Below are positions 8,662 to 17,871 of a stretch of 32,000 nucleotides of DNA, in pieces. This stretch comes from Inmirania thermothiophila (lineage in GTDB: Bacteria; Pseudomonadota; Gammaproteobacteria; DSM-100275). The stretch lies in assembly GCF_003751635.1 (NCBI RefSeq), contig NZ_RJVI01000001.1, positions 504,726 to 536,725 of the forward strand. Reading direction: 5' to 3'. Numbering within the stretch: the stretch's first letter is position 1; each line of letters opens with the position of its first letter. Made by a program: the position numbers and the translations under genes. The notes under the pieces are model-generated. The model searched no databases. It worked only from the letters and a program-made list of their open reading frames with translations, and had not been told where the DNA came from.

Positions 8662-9264
8662 TCAGGCCGAGGCGATGCGTCGCGCCAGCCGCGCGTGCAG
8701 CGGGCTCGAGCGCGGGAAGTGGGCGAGCAGGAAGGCCATCTGGTCGGCCAGCACGCGCCGGCCCTGGAGGTAGACGTACTCGGCGTGGGTCGGGGTGAAG
8801 GGCACGGCGAGCAGCGTCATCCCCGCCTCCTCGGGGGTGCGTCCCGCCTTGTGGGTGTTGCAGCGTCTGCAGGCGGTGACGACGTTGTTCCAGCTGTCGG
8901 CGCCGCCGCGGCTGATGGGGGTGACGTGGTCGCGGGAGAGCTCCGCGGCCGGGAAGCGCCCGCCGCAGTAGAGGCAGAGGTAGGCGTCGCGCTTGAACAG
9001 GGCGCGGTTGTTGAGGGGCGGGACGTGATCGCGCCAGGCCCGCTCGCGCGGGTGGCCGTGGGTGGCGATGATGGAGCTGACCTCGATGAGGCTGCGCCGG
9101 CCGCTGCGGGCGTTGATGCCGCCGCGGATGCGGTAGAGCAGGGTGCCGCAGCTGTAGGCCACCTGGCCCAGATGGTAGAGCCGTACCGCCTCGCGATAGT
9201 CCACCCACTCCAGGGGCATCCCGGAGGGATCGGTCCGCAGCACCTGCTGGGCAAGGTCCGCCAT
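8662..9264 (-). CDS. HNH endonuclease with an uncharacterised ~100-aa N-terminal domain, 200 aa
   Basis: HNH/Zn motif: 'CLYCGGRF...SRDHVTPISRGGADSWNNVVTACRRCNTHK'. I prefer the start at ATG 9264 (MADLAQQ) over 9288, because an extended -10-like element (9275..9283) lies between the two ATGs. Confidence 0.8.
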   Translation of the reverse strand: MADLAQQVLRTDPSGMPLEWVDYREAVRLYHLGQVAYSCGTLLYRIRGGINARSGRRSLIEVSSIIATHGHPRERAWRDHVPPLNNRALFKRDAYLCLYCGGRFPAAELSRDHVTPISRGGADSWNNVVTACRRCNTHKAGRTPEEAGMTLLAVPFTPTHAEYVYLQGRRVLADQMAFLLAHFPRSSPLHARLARRIASA

Positions 9265-9274
9265 GCCGCCACCC

Positions 9275-9283
9275 AATCTAGCA
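9275..9283 (-). promoter_or_regulatory. Extended -10-like element TGcTAGATT upstream of the HNH gene
   Basis: The minus strand reads cgTGcTAGATTgggtggcggcATG. The same TGCTA-type motif recurs upstream of two other minus-strand genes and one plus-strand gene in this window. Confidence 0.35.
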
Positions 9284-9307
9284 CGCATGCGCCCGCGCGC
9301 GCATGCG
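9284..9307 (-). terminator. Hairpin downstream of dsrC (9-bp stem, 6-nt loop); possible terminator or processing site
   Basis: cgcatgcgc-ccgcgc-gcgcatgcg is a perfect inverted repeat between the dsrC stop (9366) and the HNH start. No U-tract follows on the minus strand. Confidence 0.3.
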
Positions 9308-9365
9308 GGTCCGATAATCCTTGGGCAGCGCCGGCGGCGCGAGGTTCGCGCCGCAGGGTGCGGGC

Positions 9366-9698
9366 TCAGACGCAGCCGGTGGGCTTGGGCAGCCCCGCGA
9401 TGCGGCAGGCCTGCTTGGCCGGCCCGTAGGGGAACAGGCCGTAGAGATAGCGGCTGTTGCCCTTCTCGGGGCCGTAGGTCTTGGCGAAAGACTTCTGCAG
9501 CTGGCGCACGTTGGGCACGGTGCCGGTCTCCTCGTAGCCTTGGCGCAGGAAGCGGATCACCTCCCAGTGGGCCTCGGTCAGCTTCAGCCCCTCGCGCTCG
9601 GCGAGGGCCTCGGCCAGGGACTCGCTCCAGTCCGAAAGGTTGCGCAGATAGCCCTCGGCGTCGGTCTCGATGCGGCGCCCGTCGATCTCGAACTCCAT
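9366..9698 (-). CDS. dsrC: DsrC-family sulfur-relay protein (DsrC/TusE), 110 aa
   Basis: The protein is DsrC/TusE-like over its full length. The C-terminal arm 'AKQACRIAGLPKPTGCV' carries both conserved cysteines (Cys-X10-Cys-Val), the DsrC signature; TusE has only the last Cys. A strong SD (GAGGAGG) precedes the ATG. Confidence 0.85.
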   Translation of the reverse strand: MEFEIDGRRIETDAEGYLRNLSDWSESLAEALAEREGLKLTEAHWEVIRFLRQGYEETGTVPNVRQLQKSFAKTYGPEKGNSRYLYGLFPYGPAKQACRIAGLPKPTGCV

Positions 9699-9756
9699 GC
9701 CGGCGTTCCTCCTCGCTGCGGGATCCCCCCGGCGCGGTACCGGGGTCTCGGGACGG

Positions 9757-9762
9757 AAGCTA
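9757..9762 (-). promoter_or_regulatory. Candidate -10 hexamer TAGCTT for dsrC
   Basis: The minus strand reads ggatTTAGCTTcc. Its upstream edge lies 29.5 bp from the centre of the TTGA-N6-TCAA box, which puts the box at about -41.5. Confidence 0.3.
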
Positions 9763-9784
9763 AATCCGAGCGCCCAGCCAGGAA

Positions 9785-9798
9785 TTGACCCAGGTCAA
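9785..9798. promoter_or_regulatory. CRP/FNR-family (FNR/FixK/Dnr-type) box TTGACccagGTCAA
   Basis: A perfect 5-4-5 palindrome matches the TTGA-N6-TCAA core. It lies in the 167-bp divergent region between dsrC (-) and the RNA ligase gene (+), and no -35 hexamer is evident for either flanking -10. Confidence 0.5.
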
Positions 9799-9822
9799 GC
9801 GGGAGCGGCATCCACCCCCCGC

Positions 9823-9828
9823 TATACT
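9823..9828 (+). promoter_or_regulatory. Candidate -10 hexamer TATACT for the RNA ligase gene
   Basis: This is a near-consensus -10, 38 nt upstream of ATG 9866. GAAGGAG (SD) lies between the two. The FNR-type box centre is 31.5 bp upstream of the hexamer. Confidence 0.4.
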
Positions 9829-9865
9829 CCACCGGGGATAGGCGAAGCCGCGAAGGAGCGGGCGC

Positions 9866-10969
9866 ATGGCAGGGAGCGGGATGGCCGCGCTGCGCGAGGC
9901 CGCGGGCGCGGCGGGCAAGCTCGCCGCCGAGGAGCACGAGGGGCTGCGCTACGAGCGCCTCGTGGACGACTGGCACGGGCTCGCCCGCGGCACGGTCTTC
10001 GCCGCCGGCATCGTGATCCCGGGCTATCCTCCCATCCCGCGCATCCTCCGCCTCGCCACGGGCCTTGCCGAGCGCTTCCCGGGCCCCTTCCGCGTGGAGG
10101 AGAAGATCGACGGCTACAACGTGCGCTACGCCCTCGTGGAGGGGCGGCTCCTCGGCTTCAGCCGCGGCGGCTTCGTCTGCCCCTTCGCCACCGACCGCGG
10201 GCCGGAGCTCTTCGACCCGGCGGTGCTGGAGGAGGCCCCGTCGCGGGTGCTCTGCGCCGAGCTCGCAGGCCCCGGCAATCCCTACAACATCGGCCGGCCT
10301 CCGGATCCGGTCGCGGACGTGGCCCTCTACGCCTTCGATCTGCTCGCCACGGACGGTTCCGGCTTCCTGCCCGCCGGGGAGCTGGATGCGCTGGCCGCGG
10401 CGGGGGCGGTGCGCCGCGCCCGCCTCCTCGGCCGGCACACCGCGGCGGACGTCGCCGCGCTGCGGACCCTGCTGCACCGGCTCGATGCGGAGCGCCGCGA
10501 GGGGGTGGTCTTCAAGGAGGACGGACCCCAGGGGCGGCGCGCCAAGTACACCACGGCGCGGGTGACGGTGGACGACCTGCGGGTGACGGGGGCGGAGCTC
10601 CTGGACCTGCCGCCGTGGTACTTCACGGGACGGCTGCTGCGGCTTGCGCTCTTCGTCGACGAGGAGGGGCTGCCGCGGGAGCGGCTCGCCGCCGAGATGG
10701 GGACGGCGCTGCTCGAGGGGATGCTGGATGCGGTGGCGCAGGTGCGCGACCACGGCCGCGTCGAGCACGCCTTCCGCTGCCGCTTCCGCGCGCGGGCCAA
10801 TGCCGAGCGCTTCGCGGCCATGTTGCGCGGGCGCGCCGCGGTGCAGGTTCTCGTCGACGGCATCGAGCCCGACGCCGAGGGCTACCACGTCCTGCGCTTC
10901 CGGCGCGTCTACCCGGCCATGACCGGGCTGCTCGCCAACGTCCTGCGCGGCGGCGCCATCGAGGACTGA
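9866..10969 (+). CDS. ATP-dependent RNA ligase, archaeal Pab1020/Rnl3-like family, 367 aa
   Basis: Covalent nucleotidyltransferase motifs are present: I 'RVEEKIDGYNVR' (Lys80, codon 10103..10105), 'GFSRGGFVCPF', III-like 'VLCAELAGPGNPY', IV 'EGVVFKE' and V 'AKYTT'. Length and motif order match the Pab1020 family. Confidence 0.8.
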   Translation: MAGSGMAALREAAGAAGKLAAEEHEGLRYERLVDDWHGLARGTVFAAGIVIPGYPPIPRILRLATGLAERFPGPFRVEEKIDGYNVRYALVEGRLLGFSRGGFVCPFATDRGPELFDPAVLEEAPSRVLCAELAGPGNPYNIGRPPDPVADVALYAFDLLATDGSGFLPAGELDALAAAGAVRRARLLGRHTAADVAALRTLLHRLDAERREGVVFKEDGPQGRRAKYTTARVTVDDLRVTGAELLDLPPWYFTGRLLRLALFVDEEGLPRERLAAEMGTALLEGMLDAVAQVRDHGRVEHAFRCRFRARANAERFAAMLRGRAAVQVLVDGIEPDAEGYHVLRFRRVYPAMTGLLANVLRGGAIED

Positions 10970-10977
10970 ACGCGGCC

Positions 10978-11568
10978 TCAGGGCGCGAAGTGCTCGATCC
11001 GGTTCTCGAGGATGCGGCGGAAGTGGCGCGGGTCGATGATCTTGACCCCGAGGCGGTCGGCCCAGCGCAGCAGGCCCTCGTCCGCCGAGACCACCACTCC
11101 GTCCACCTCGTAGGCGAGCAGGAGCACGTCGGCGTCCTCGCGGCTGTCGACGATGCCCTTGCGCAGGGCCTCGCGGTAGCGCTCGCGCAGGTGGTGCATG
11201 AGGCGCTCGGCGTCGCCCGCATCGACGCTCCGCCCGGCCAGGCGCATGTGCTCCTCGGCGATGCGCAGGCCGCGGTTGATGCGCTCGCGCACCTCCTCGA
11301 TGAACTCGTAGAGGATCTCGCTCGGCAGCTGCATGCCGAAGCGGCGCGGCGAACGGATGTAGACCACGGTCTCGAAGTCGGCGGCCACCTCGGCGAGGTC
11401 GCGCATGCGCCCGAGCTCCTCGTAGACCGAGATCGGCATGTAGAAGCGGGCGTGGGCGCGGGGGGCGAGCGCGACGAAGGCGGTGATGGCCCCGTGCGGC
11501 TCGTCGGCGAACTGCGCGTAGACGTCGGGGTTGGTGAACAGGCTGGTGTCGAGGACGTAGCTCTCCAT
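10978..11568 (-). CDS. PIN-domain protein of the 'RNA ligase partner, MJ_0950' family, 196 aa
   Basis: '[14 protein letters not shown]' supplies the PIN N-terminal Asp, followed by acidic residues in 'VYEELG' and 'VVSADEGLL'. I prefer the start at ATG 11568 (SD AAGGCGGAG upstream), because the upstream ATG at 11601 lies inside a -10-like hexamer. Confidence 0.75.
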
Positions 11569-11596
11569 CGCCGCCGCTCCGCCTTCGCCTGGGGCG

Positions 11597-11605
11597 AGCA
11601 TAGCA
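11597..11605 (-). promoter_or_regulatory. Extended -10-like element TGcTATGCT upstream of the PIN partner gene
   Basis: The minus strand reads cgTGcTATGCTcgcc. It gives a ~25-nt leader to ATG 11568 that includes an SD. Confidence 0.35.
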
Positions 11606-11627
11606 CGGCGCAGGCGGGCGCCGCGGC

Positions 11628-11636
11628 TGCTAGGAT
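11628..11636 (+). promoter_or_regulatory. Extended -10-like element TGcTAGGAT exactly 6 nt before ATG 11643 (possible leaderless start); AGGA could instead be an SD
   Basis: The plus strand reads gcTGcTAGGATggccccATG. Confidence 0.3.
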
Positions 11637-11642
11637 GGCCCC

Positions 11643-12427
11643 ATGTGCCTGATCCTCGTCGCCCACCGCGCCCACCCGCGCTGGCCCCTCGTCATCGCCG
11701 CCAACCGCGACGAGTTCCGCGACCGCCCGGCGGCGCCGGCGGCATGGTGGCGCGAGGACGCGCGGGTGCTCGCCGGGCGCGACCTCGCCGCCGGCGGGAC
11801 CTGGCTGGGGGTGCGCCGCGACGGGCGCTGGGCCGCGGTGACCAACGTCCGCGAGGGCCGGCGCGGGCGGCATCCGCGCTCGCGCGGCGAACTCGTCGCC
11901 CGCTACCTCCTCGGCGATGCGCCGCCGCGGGCCTTCCTCGCCGAGGCCCTCGCCGGGGGGGCGGCCTACGGCGGCTTCAACCTGCTCGTGGCCACCCCCG
12001 ACGAGGTCCTCTACGGCTCCAACCGCGGCCACGGCATCCACGCCCTCGCCCCGGGGGTGCACGGCCTCAGCAACGGCCGCCTCGACGCCCCCTGGCCCAA
12101 GGTGCGCAGGGGGCGGGAGGGCCTGCGGGCGCTGCTTGCGGGCGAGGGCCCGCGGGTCGAGGCGCTGATGGCGCTGCTTGCCGACCGTCGCGAGGCGCCC
12201 CCGGAGGCGCTGCCGGATACCGGCGTCGGCCCCGAACGGGAGCGGCGGCTTTCACCGCTCTTCATCGTCGGCGCCGACTACGGCACGCGCTGCTCCACGG
12301 TCCTGGTGGTGGACCGGGAGGGGCGGGCCTGCCTCGTGGAGCGCACCTGGGACGGCCGCGGCGAGGCGGTGGGCGAGTGCCGCCACGAGTTCGAGATCCC
12401 GGCCTTTGCTGCGGGGGAGGAGGTGTC

Positions 12428-12431
<4 letters not shown>
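11643..12431 (+). CDS. NRDE-family protein (DUF833, TANGO2-like), 262 aa
   Basis: N-terminal 'MCLIL' (Cys2), the eponymous 'AANRDEF', and 'GGTWLG' are present. Confidence 0.85.
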
Positions 12432-13648
<1,217 letters not shown>

Positions 13649-13652
13649 GCCC

Positions 13653-14852
13653 CTACTCGCCGCGCAGGGCCTCCACCGGGTCGAGGCGGGCGGCGCGCCG
13701 CGCCGGCCACACGCCGGCGGCGAGGCCGATGGCGAGGGCGGTGGCGGCGGCCGCGGCGAGATAGCCCCAGGGCACGTGCACCGGCAGCCCCGGCAGCAGC
13801 CGCGCCGCCGAGAGCGCGAGGAGCAGCCCGCCGGCGATGCCGGCGGCGGCCCCGGCGAGGGCCACCGCGGCGGCCTCGCCGAGAAAGAGGGCGAGGATCT
13901 GGCCGCGCCTCGCGCCCAAGGCACGCAGCAGTCCCACCTCGGCGGTGCGCTCGGCGACCCCGATGGTCATGATGGTGAGGATGCCGACGCCGCCGACGAG
14001 GAGGGAGATGGCGCCGAGGGCTGCGACCGCAAGCTGCAGCACCTCGAGGACCGAGCCCAGGACCTCGAGCATCTGCGTCTGGGTCACGAGGGTGAAGTCC
14101 TCGCCCCCGTGCCGTGCCAGGAGCAGGCGGCGCACCGCCGCCGTGACCCGCTCCACGGCCAGCTCCGGCCGGTAGAGGAGATCCACCTCCATCAGGCCCT
14201 CGCGATCGAACATGGCGAGGGCCCGCCCCACCGGGATGTAGACCGCATCGTCGAGGTCGAAGCCGAGGAACTGCCCCTTGGGCGCCATGACCCCGACGAC
14301 GCGGTAGCGCTCGCCGCCGATGCGCACGCGCCGCCCGAGGGGGTTGACCGCCGGGAAGAGGGCCGCGCGCACGCGGGCCCCGAGGACCGCGAAGGGGCGC
14401 GCCCGCCGGGGGGGATCCGCGGGCAGGAAGCGGCCTGCGGCGACGGCGAAGCGCCACACCGCGGGCAGGTCGGCGTCGGCCCCGAAGACGAGCACCCGCC
14501 GCGAGCGCCCACCCGCCTCCACCGCCGCGTTGCCCTGCACGAAGGGCACCGCCGCCGCCACCTCCGGCAGCCGCTCCAGCGCCTCGGCGTCCTCCAGGGT
14601 GAGGGGCCGCACCGTGTTGATCACGGCCCCGGAGATGCCCAGGGTCGTGGTGCGCCCCGGCACCACCGCCACGAGATGGGTGCCGAACTGGGTGAACTCG
14701 GCCAGGACGTAGCGGCGCAGGCCCTCCCCGAGGCTGGTCAGGACCACCACCGCCGCCACCCCCACGGCGATGCCGAGGGCGGTGAGGAGGCTGCGCGCGC
14801 GCCAGGCCCGCAGGCTGCCGGCGACGAGGGCGACGGCGTCGGCGGCGCGCAC
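13653..14852 (-). CDS. ABC transporter permease, FtsX/MacB-type (copy 2), 399 aa
   Basis: The MacB_PCD-like periplasmic domain sits between TM1 and TM2. The C-terminal FtsX region includes '[21 protein letters not shown]'. It is paralogous to the upstream permease. Confidence 0.85.
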
Positions 14853-14855
14853 CGC

Positions 14856-16052
14856 TCAGCGCCCCGCCAGCGCCGCCACCGGGTCGAGGCGGGCGGCGCG
14901 CCGCGCCGGCAGCAGCCCGAGGCCGGCCCCGGCGGCGAGGGCGGTGGCCGGGCCCGCCACGGCCGCCCACGCCGGCACCGCCAGCGGCAGCGACGGCAGC
15001 AGCCGCGCCAGCACCCAGCCGCCCAGGTGGCCGAGGGCGAGGCCGGCGAGGGCGCCGGCGAGGCTGAGCAGCGCGGCCTCGGCGAGAAACAGGGCGAGCA
15101 CCGTGCGCCGCCGCGCCCCCAGGGCGAGCAGGAGGCCGATCTCGGCACGGCGCTGGGCCACCGCCACCAGCATCACGTTCATGGTGAGGATGCCGGCGAC
15201 GAGCAGGCTCACGGCGGCGATGGCGGCGACCACCCGGGTGAGGAGGGCGAGGATGCGGTCGAAGGTGGCCACCACGGCGTCCTGGGTGATCACGGTGACG
15301 TCCAGGGTGCCGTGGCGGCGCCCGATCAGGCCCTCGATGGCCCGGCGCGCCGGCGCCAGGGCGGCGCGGTCGCGGGCCTCGGCGAGGATGCGGAAGAGCC
15401 CGCTGCGATCGAAGAGCGCCTGCGCATAGGCCACCGGCACCAGCACCACCTCGTCGAAGTCGAGGCCGAGGCTCCGCCCCTCCGGCGCGAGGATGCCGAT
15501 CACCCGGCAGCGGCGCTCACCGAGGCGCAGCCAGCGCCCCACCGCGCGCGTGCCGGGATAGAGCTCGCGCGCCAGCGTCGCGCCGAGGACGCACACCGGG
15601 CGTGCCGCCGTGCCGGGGGGAAGGAAGCGCCCGGCGGCGAGGCGCAGGCGCCGGATCGGCCGCATCTCGGCGGTGGTGCCCACCACCGTGGCCTCGCGCT
15701 CGCGCCCGCCCGCCGCCGCCGGGGCCGAGCCCACCACCACCGGCGCCACCCGCCGCACCGGCGGCAGCCGCGCCACCGCGGCGGCGTCGGCGAGGGTGAG
15801 CTCGCGCGGGGTCTCGGCGATGAGCGGCGGCGGCCCGCCCACGGTCTCGCTGCGCCCGGGCAGGACCACCACCAGGTGGGTGCCGAGCGCGGTGAAGCGA
15901 TCCACCACGAAGCGGCGGGTCCCCTCGCCGAGGGCGGCGAGGAGCACCACCGCCGCGACCCCGACGGCGGTGGCGGCGAGGGTGAGGAGGCTGCGGCGGC
16001 GGTGGCCGCGCAGGGCGGCGGCGGCCCAGGCGAGGACGTCCGCCGCCCTCAC
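14856..16052 (-). CDS. ABC transporter permease, FtsX/MacB-type (copy 1), 398 aa
   Basis: The GTG start at 16052 overlaps the ATPase stop (GTGA). FtsX motif region: '[21 protein letters not shown]'. Confidence 0.85.
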
Positions 16053-16723
16053 CGCCGGCGGTCCTCCACGATGCGCCCGTCCTCGAGCCGGATCAGGCGC
16101 GGGGCGCGCCCGCCGATGGCGGGGTCGTGGGTGACCACCACGAGGGTGAGGCCCTCGCCGTGGAGCCGCTCGAGCAGCGCCAGGACCTCGCGCCCGGTGG
16201 CGCGGTCGAGGTTGCCGGTGGGCTCGTCGGCGAGCAGCAGCGCCGGGCGCAGGATGGTGGCGCGGGCGATGGCGACGCGCTGGCGCTGCCCGCCCGAGAG
16301 CTCGTCCGGGCGGTGGGCGGCGCGGTGGGCGAGGCCGACGCCGGCGAGCGCCTCGGCCACGCGCCGGCGCCGCGCCGCCGGTGCGACGCCGGCCAGCACC
16401 AGGGGCAGGGCGACGTTGTCGGCGGCGCTCAGCCGCGGCACCAGGTGGAAGAACTGGAAGACGAAGCCGATGCGGCGCAGGCGCAGGGCGGCGCGGGCGT
16501 CGTCGTCGAGGCCGCCGACGTCGGCCCCGTCGAGGAGGTAGCGGCCGGCACTCGGGCGATCCAGCAGGCCCAGGATGTGCAGCAGCGTCGACTTGCCCGA
16601 GCCCGACGGCCCCATGATGGCGACGTATTCGCCGGCCTCGACGGCGAGGTCGACCCCGCGCAGGGCGTGCACCGGCTCGCCGCCGACCCGGAAGGTGCGG
16701 CTCACGCCCTCGAGGCGGATCAT
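16049..16723 (-). CDS. ABC transporter ATP-binding protein (MacB/LolD-like), 224 aa
   Basis: An internal ATG at 16723 lies in ORF 16049..17797. Walker A 'GPSGSGKST', Q-loop 'FVFQFF', signature '[14 protein letters not shown]', Walker B '[12 protein letters not shown]' and 'VTHD' are present. Confidence 0.9.
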
Positions 16724-17871
16724 CGCGGCCCGCGCGGGCGCACGGCGACGCCGTCGCCGAGCCCCTCCTGGCCGGGCCGGTGGACGATGCGCTCGCCCTC
16801 GCGCAGACCCTCCAGCACCTCCACCCAGGCCCAGTTGCCGAGGCCGATGCGCACCTCGCGCGCGCGCAGGACGCCCGCGGCCTCGTCGAAGACCAGCACC
16901 CGTCGCCCCTCGAGCACCGCCTCGGCGGGGATGCGCAGCACCCCTTCGCGGCGGGCGCGCACGATCTCCACGTCGGCGCTGTAGCCGGGCAGCAGCCCCG
17001 TCCGGTCCTCCAGCGCCACCTCCACCTCCACCGTGCGGGCCTGCCGTTCGCGGTCGAGGACGTAGGGGGCGATGCGACGCACGCGCCCCGGGATGGTCCG
17101 TCCCGGGAAGGCGTCGAGGGTCACCCGCACCGGCATGTCCAGGGCGACCCCGGCCGCATCCACCTCGTCGATGGGGGCGCTGACGTAGAGGTCGCCGTCG
17201 TCGATGAGGTCCACCGCCGGCGGGGTCGGCACCCCCGGCGGCGACGGGGTGACGTACTCGCCGAGCGCGGCGTTGATCTCGGCCACGACACCGGCGAAGG
17301 GGGCGCGCAGCCGGGTCCGCTCGAGCTCGGCCTCGGCCACCGCGATGCGCGCCTCGGCGACGCGGGCGCCGGCCTCGGCGGCGCGGCAGGCGGCCTCGGC
17401 GGCACGGGCCTCGCCCGCGGCCCGTTCCGCCACCTCCTCGGCGACGAGCCCCTGCGCGTGCAGGCGCAGCTGGCGGTCGGCCTCGCGGCGGGCGGTGGCG
17501 GCGCGGCTGCAGGCCTCCTCGGCGCGGGCGCGGGCGGCCTCGGCCTCGCGGCGGGCGAGGGCGAGGCGGGCGGCGAGATCGTCGTTGCGCAGCTCGAGGA
17601 GCAGCGCGCCGGCCGCCACCCGCTCGCCCTCGCGCACGAGGAGCCGCGCCACCTGCCCGCCCACGGGCGGGGCGAGGCGCGCGCGGCGCACCGCCTCCAC
17701 GGTGCCGGCGCGGGTGTTGGCCACCGTCGCCTCCACCACGCCGCGGCCGACGCGCACCAGCTCCACCGCGGGCGGCACCGGCCGCGCCTGCCACCACAGC
17801 GCCGCCGCCGCCCCGGCGAGGAGCAGCAGCGCGAGGAGGCGGCGCGGGGCATGCGACCCGGTCCCTTCCAT
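16720..17871 (-). CDS. Efflux periplasmic adaptor (HlyD/MFP family), 383 aa
   Basis: An internal ATG at 17871 lies in ORF 16720..18726, with SD GAGGGAGAAG upstream. The protein has a signal-anchor, a lipoyl-like '[23 protein letters not shown]', an Ala/Arg coiled-coil hairpin and 'LRAPFAGVV'. Its stop overlaps the ATPase start (ATGA). Confidence 0.85.

Follow-up and report, generated by a model that had tools for sequence, protein, structure and literature searches.

A tail-to-tail HARP-Rnl3 gene pair in the chromosome of the thermophilic gammaproteobacterium Inmirania thermothiophila

Inmirania thermothiophila is a thermophilic, sulfur-oxidising gammaproteobacterium. A stretch of 32,000 nucleotides from its contig NZ_RJVI01000001.1 (assembly GCF_003751635.1), referred to below as the window, carries two genes that converge tail to tail. 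One encodes an ATP-dependent RNA ligase of the Rnl3 type, the other a member of the 'RNA ligase partner' family which, judged by its sequence, is HARP, the RNA-free ribonuclease P (RNase P). The identity of the two genes and their membership of the known HARP-Rnl3 pair are practically certain. The window pair is already catalogued and is an instance of a known, conserved two-gene module (Seshadri and Gopalan, mBio 2025, PMC12153264). Overall, this reading of the locus is highly probable, and an accessory role of the pair in RNA processing is proposed. A cultured thermophilic gammaproteobacterium carrying the pair could serve as test organism for two questions: what a protein-only RNase P contributes beside the RNA-based enzyme, and what links HARP to a ligase that circularises RNA.

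The pair is laid out as follows (positions are those of the window; aa, amino acids; bp, base pairs):

9866..10969, + strand: gene of the Rnl3 (Pab1020/MthRnl-type) ATP-dependent RNA ligase, 367 aa (open reading frame, profiles, homology)
10970..10977: spacer of 8 bp between the convergent stop codons (sequence)
10978..11568, - strand: gene of HARP (PIN_5), 196 aa (open reading frame, profiles, homology)

An earlier annotation of this DNA, called here the original prediction, had named both open reading frames (ORFs) and their tail-to-tail arrangement with 8-bp spacing. Both ORFs are present at these positions, and the arrangement was confirmed from the sequence. The HARP frame is open further, to an ATG at 11601. 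Since all relatives are homologous from MESYVLDTS onward and the database entry has 196 aa, the start was placed at 11568. With full coverage, the HARP of the window is 100% identical to the I. thermothiophila protein listed as 'RNA ligase partner protein' or 'RNA-free ribonuclease P'. The ligase is 100% identical to 'RNA ligase [Inmirania thermothiophila]', and it reaches this identity only with the entry of its own genome.

Assignment of the ligase and its partner

The assignment of the 367-aa protein to the Pab1020/Rnl3-type RNA ligases, as made in the original prediction, holds. In the NCBIfam search it scored 265.7 bits on TIGR01209 (RNA ligase, Pab1020 family; cut-off 136.9) over positions 14-375 of the 375 in the profile. 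The Pfam models RNA_ligase (PF09414) and Lig_C (PF18330) were matched as well, the latter with 65.3 bits (cut-off 25) over residues 245-363. The window ligase thus has the dimerisation and C-terminal region of the Pab1020 type, by which Rnl3 is distinguished from Rnl1, Rnl2 and Rnl5. End-to-end alignments were obtained with the solved Rnl3 enzymes, namely 3qwu from Aquifex (1.5e-79; residues 16-367 on 16-370), Pab1020 (2vug, 5.9e-61), PpaRnl (8uce) and MthRnl (5d1o). The domain order (N-terminal, nucleotidyltransferase, dimerisation, C-terminal), all motifs and the catalytic lysine are common to the window ligase and the Rnl3 structures 2vug, 5d1o/5d1p, 8uce and 3qwu. The window enzyme differs from the other Rnl3 ligases compared in being bacterial and of high G+C.

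All ligase motifs quoted in the original prediction, Lys80 included, were found: EEKIDGYN at residues 78-85 (K80), GFSRGGFVCPF at 97-107, LCAELAGPGNPY at 129-140, EGVVFKE at 212-218 and AKYTT at 226-230. They supply the nucleotidyltransferase motifs I (K80), Ia (SRGG, R100/G102), III (E132), IIIa (F157-D158), IV (E212-G213..K217) and V (K227). K80 is aligned with the lysine of the KVDG motif in Pab1020 and 3qwu. Across an alignment of 18 ligase sequences, E78, E79, K80, G83, N85, R100, G102, E132, F157, D158, E212, G213, K217 and K227 are invariant. The Rnl3 enzymes Pab1020, MthRnl and PpaRnl are homodimers that are adenylylated at the expense of ATP and circularise single-stranded RNA. They join a 5'-phosphate to a 3'-OH by way of lysine-AMP and RNA-adenylate intermediates, and their preference for intramolecular sealing leads to circular RNA.

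The database label of the protein in UniRef and at the JGI, 'putative ATP-dependent DNA ligase', points to a different activity. PDB entries 3qwu and 8uce bear DNA-ligase names too, and Rnl3 enzymes are able to adenylylate single-stranded DNA in vitro, which MthRnl can also circularise. That the protein is a DNA ligase is nevertheless extremely improbable. It passed TIGR01209 as well as the Pfam models RNA_ligase and Lig_C, and the NCBIfam and Pfam profile searches assigned it to no DNA-ligase family at E <= 0.01. The names of the two PDB entries were given by the depositors; the protein in 8uce is PpaRnl of Palaeococcus pacificus, which has been characterised as an RNA ligase, and the literature assigns 3qwu to Rnl3.

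The closest named relatives of the ligase are gammaproteobacterial, with 44-51% identity (Sediminicurvatus, Alkalispirillum, Thioalkalivibrio, Halorhodospira). The local G+C is like that of the rest of the window, which varies between 68 and 82% per kilobase. Neither finding suggests a recent acquisition from archaea.

The second gene had been described in the original prediction as a PIN-like protein of the MJ_0950 'RNA ligase partner' family. This description was borne out by three profiles: the equivalog NF003344 (NCBIfam search, 289.1 bits, cut-off 241), TIGR03875 ('RNA ligase partner', 222.9 bits, cut-off 95.3) and Pfam PIN_5 (PF08745, 217.3 bits, cut-off 27). For both proteins the curated cut-offs are exceeded widely, far more than chance would allow. 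In holding that no function is established for the partner, the original prediction is outdated. The family corresponds to HARP (homologs of Aquifex RNase P). HARP is a PIN nuclease that depends on metal, assembles into oligomers with as many as 12 subunits and cuts the 5' leaders off pre-tRNAs; mutagenesis has located its catalytic aspartates. Seven distinct PDB sequences titled 'RNA-free ribonuclease P' matched the window HARP with E values of 1e-70 to 2e-42, the best of them being 8kd9/7f3e/8ssf/7og5 (E about 1e-70, about 60% identity). Among these, Aq880 of Aquifex aeolicus (7f3e, 8kd9) and the HARP of Halorhodospira halophila (7og5) align over the full length. The window HARP differs from these two by a three-residue insertion in the loop of residues 113-121.

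Residues 1-193 of the 196 in the window HARP align to residues 1-190 of the 190 in Aq880. The alignment includes the C-terminal helix, which is needed for the formation of tetramers and higher oligomers. D7, D141, D145 and D163 are aligned with D7, D138, D142 and D160 of Aq880, the last being numbered D161 in the Aq880 paper, and all four are invariant among 30 HARPs. Mutagenesis of Aq880 identified D7, D138, D142 and D161 as indispensable for activity.

In its host, Aq880 is the only RNase P, and the same role could be considered for the window HARP. It would then be the main or only RNase P, rnpA and rnpB would have been lost as in the Aquificaceae, and the ligase would be incidental. The organism originates from hydrothermal vents (Seshadri and Gopalan 2025). 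Its HARP is 58-63% identical to the active Aquificales enzymes, a similarity as high as that to the gammaproteobacterial ones. Moreover, the sole robustly active HARP from a bacterium with both types of RNase P, that of T. indicus, which is robust on pre-tRNA, comes from a thermophile. Gammaproteobacterial HARPs, in contrast to Aq880, coexist with the RNA-based enzyme: a 2019 survey found the latter encoded in all ten gammaproteobacterial genera with HARP (10/10). We therefore regard a HARP-only RNase P in I. thermothiophila as very improbable. Rfam did not find rnpB in the 32-kb window, where none was expected, so that the window carries no information on the matter.

Linkage of HARP and Rnl3 in bacterial genomes

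Seshadri and Gopalan (2025) screened more than 1 million genomes for HARP and detected it in 573 archaeal and 178 bacterial ones. The Rnl3 ligase was present in 665 of these 751 HARP-positive genomes, leaving 11% with HARP and without the ligase, and HARP was found in every ligase-positive genome. Co-localised pairs amounted to 127/164 in bacteria and 163/501 in archaea. A row of their Table S1 is devoted to Inmirania thermothiophila DSM 100275 (hydrothermal vents; GC 74.26; HARP 1; ligase YES; co-localised Yes; Convergent). The window agrees with this entry. It has the same two families in convergent orientation, and with stops 8 bp apart the genes lie well within the distance of 5 kb used for a co-localised pair. 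The original prediction had presented the pair as an archaeal one in a proteobacterial chromosome. The pair is not archaeal alone: it occurs in 164 bacterial genomes, and its linkage is tighter in bacteria.

The conservation of the arrangement was surveyed in one genome per species. A scan with a HARP alignment yielded 80 bacterial loci, which were then searched by tblastn with the window ligase. The loci belong mostly to Aquificota and Gammaproteobacteria, plus one Tectomicrobia and one Acidobacteria, and the Inmirania genome itself is not among them. At five of the 80 loci the downstream flank was too short to judge, so that 75 were informative. In this independent check of the published linkage, the ligase lay directly downstream of HARP in 56 of the 80 loci (56/75 informative), and its orientation was convergent in all 56.

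These 56 loci fell into three stop-to-stop layouts:

48/56 loci: ORFs overlapping by 4-42 bp, mostly by 4, 27 or 30 bp
6/56 loci: gap of 3-14 bp
2/56 loci: larger gap, of 187 and 791 bp

The overlaps were checked by ORF listing, which gave 4 bp in locus L018 (10579-10582) and 42 bp in locus L003 (10568-10609). Compared with the pairs in most related bacterial loci, whose ORFs overlap, the 8-bp gap of the window is a minor, non-overlapping variant; there was otherwise no substantive difference. Overlaps of 27 and 30 bp recur across Aquificota, Gammaproteobacteria and Tectomicrobia. As the same lengths are found in different phyla, the tail-to-tail unit appears to have been passed on as one block, by inheritance or transfer. 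That the ORFs commonly overlap at their 3' ends across phyla is new from this survey and its sole, small increment over the published catalogue of about 127 bacterial pairs. This overlap suggests that the two genes are inherited as one unit and that antisense transcription cannot be avoided.

Both loci with a larger gap are gammaproteobacterial. In L005 the pair is split by 791 bp (10574-11364), and the gap holds an ORF of 206 aa (10498..11118, + strand) resembling a hypothetical membrane protein. The ligase of this locus is the closest relative of the window ligase within the set (50% identity). In L061 the genes of the pair are 187 bp apart (10580-10766).

Proposed function and competing explanations

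RNase P-type cleavage yields a 5'-phosphate and a 3'-OH. HARP would cut RNA in this manner, as with the 5' leader of pre-tRNA, and its products would thus carry the ends that Rnl3 needs. The Rnl3 homodimer would adenylylate itself on the lysine, pass the AMP to the 5'-phosphate end of an RNA and seal this end to a 3'-OH. The RNA-based RNase P would probably handle the bulk of tRNA processing in Inmirania. The pair would then constitute an accessory module for RNA end processing or repair under hot or harsh conditions, in which HARP would set the 5'-phosphate end on a structured RNA (pre-tRNA or another substrate) and Rnl3 would seal or circularise the ends. Both genes would be inherited and transferred together as a tail-to-tail unit. 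A coupled reaction of cutting and subsequent sealing or circularisation would be chemically plausible. The cut-and-reseal idea of the original prediction is reasonable in itself, and it had appeared earlier as a hypothesis (Seshadri and Gopalan 2025). A direct functional coupling of HARP and ligase is proposed here tentatively, as a possibility that falls short of being probable.

Several observations weigh against an RNA-processing module of two coupled enzymes. The layout is convergent and forms no operon, so co-expression of the pair is not implied. Two thirds of the archaeal pairs are unlinked, the functional link between HARP and ligase is given as a hypothesis, and the substrates proposed for archaea are C/D box small RNAs, which bacteria do not have (Seshadri and Gopalan 2025). 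In our survey, 19 of the 75 informative HARP loci, about a quarter, had no ligase within the available flank. The pairwise distances of HARP and ligase were strongly correlated (r = 0.95; 0/2000 permutations as high), which fits co-inheritance, but a shared species history would also produce this correlation and it is hence not proof of coupling. When HARPs of three other gammaproteobacteria were produced as recombinant proteins, their activity on pre-tRNA at 37 C was weak or absent, and they failed to rescue E. coli from RNase P depletion. By analogy with the thermophile T. indicus, the HARP of Inmirania, with its vent origin, might show higher activity at the temperature at which the organism grows. 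A literature search found no papers after that of Seshadri and Gopalan (2025) in which the HARP-ligase link was tested by experiment.

In a rival explanation the two enzymes would work independently in RNA metabolism under extreme conditions: HARP would be a robust reserve RNase P, and Rnl3 would serve general RNA end repair or circularisation. They would have been acquired together and would share no substrate. Such independence is conceded as a possibility by Seshadri and Gopalan (2025). It is in line with two genes that are not co-transcribed and with the frequency of unlinked loci. It also agrees with the lack of a growth defect upon knockout of HARP in two archaea or of the ligase in T. 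kodakarensis (Seshadri and Gopalan 2025). The occurrence of HARP in all ligase-positive genomes speaks against it. So does the tail-to-tail adjacency, abutting or overlapping, that is kept over several phyla while the flanking genes all differ, a pattern which argues for selection on the linkage. Independent functions are accordingly a serious candidate, to be held with reservation.

The original prediction had also considered a toxin/antidote-like control, in which HARP would be a VapC-like PIN toxin acting on tRNA or another RNA and the ligase would reseal the cut. The genes do adjoin each other and the chemistries of the ends are compatible. HARP shares with the VapBC toxins the PIN metallonuclease fold with four acidic residues and has been placed in the VapC group, within the PIN_5 cluster (Seshadri and Gopalan 2025). 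Unlike these toxins, HARPs are non-toxic in E. coli, form large oligomers and act as RNase P. The HARPs of Aquifex and T. indicus rescue, rather than kill, E. coli cells depleted of RNase P, and five bacterial HARPs have been expressed in E. coli without the ligase. A toxin would also be difficult to reconcile with the role of the Aquifex HARP as sole RNase P of its host, with the neutral knockout of the T. kodakarensis ligase and with the 11% of HARP-positive genomes that have no ligase (Seshadri and Gopalan 2025). VapBC systems carry a small antitoxin gene upstream in an operon. The window pair has neither such a gene nor an operon, and the only tightly linked gene is that of the convergent 367-aa ligase. 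The PADLOC defence-system models gave no match for ligase or HARP at E <= 0.001. A toxin-antidote function is disfavoured by this evidence and seems very unlikely.

Gene junction, candidate promoters and neighbouring genes

The following further elements and genes surround the pair:

8662-9288, - strand: stand-alone HNH endonuclease, 208 aa
9366-9698, - strand: DsrC-like protein (PF04358, 153.7 bits), C-terminus PKPTGCV with cysteine, divergent from the ligase
9785-9798: perfect palindrome TTGACCCAGGTCAA, resembling CRP/FNR-family sites, in the 167 bp that separate the ligase gene from the divergent dsrC-like gene
9823-9828, + strand: TATACT, candidate -10 hexamer, 38 bp upstream of the ligase ATG
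11605->11597, - strand: TGcTATGCT, candidate extended -10, about 29 bp upstream of the HARP ATG at 11568
11643-12431, + strand: TANGO2/NRDE-family protein (229.5 bits), divergent from HARP
12431-13648, + strand: alpha/beta-hydrolase fused to an OsmC-like domain

The 8 bp between the stop codons are too short for a terminator, and the transcripts of HARP and ligase must therefore overlap at their 3' ends. A scan for consensus promoters and terminators over 9300..12000 revealed no terminator-like site, including between the genes, and no sigma-70-like promoter. The junction itself (10920-11030) has no significant secondary structure, its fold being no more stable than that of shuffled sequence (z = -0.5). 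One could envisage that the tail-to-tail 3' overlap is functional, with antisense mRNAs toggling between cutting and sealing, and that the pair would act on a non-tRNA substrate to give circular or resealed RNAs at high temperature. With its 8-bp gap and the palindrome upstream of the ligase, the window locus would then be a variant in which redox state switches the ligase on. We consider this combination speculative and unlikely.

The promoter elements claimed in the original prediction, an FNR-type palindrome, TATACT and TGcTATGCT, do exist as sequences; their function as promoters was not supported by the scan, which returned no sigma-70-like site. The palindrome has a single match in the window, where 0.07 would be expected at <= 1 mismatch. 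TATACT is situated about 33 bp from its centre, a spacing compatible with a candidate activator-dependent promoter. The palindrome lies between two genes, however, and as a candidate site could serve the ligase or the dsrC-like gene of sulfur metabolism equally. When the 300 bp upstream of the ligase were inspected in related loci, an FNR-like box was absent in 50/51, with one weak match in the 51, and such a box is consequently not a feature of the module. An independent regulation of cleavage and sealing through the FNR-type box, as originally proposed, is thus unsupported. On the other side of the pair, 74 bp separate HARP from the divergent TANGO2/NRDE gene. The candidate extended -10 in this interval overlaps the alternative ATG at 11601, in agreement with 11568 as the true start of HARP.

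No conserved third gene accompanies the pair: when eight neighbours from the window were searched by tblastn in the 80 loci, the sole matches were generic paralogues of ABC ATPases and a single DsrC. ABC transporter components are also among the neighbours in the window. The HNH endonuclease gave weak PADLOC matches to PtuB-type proteins (best E 6e-8) that are confined to the HNH motif region, and no partner ATPase is adjacent to it.

RNA genes were not detected by Rfam at gathering thresholds in the whole window. At E <= 1, over 9300-16600, there were only two sub-threshold matches to plant microRNAs, which were taken as chance. ARAGORN called a tRNA-Arg (TCG) of 83 nt at 16319-16401 (+ strand), for which Rfam gave no tRNA match at either the gathering score or E <= 1. 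The call sits inside a long minus-strand ORF (16049..17797) in DNA of 78% G+C and is probably a false positive.

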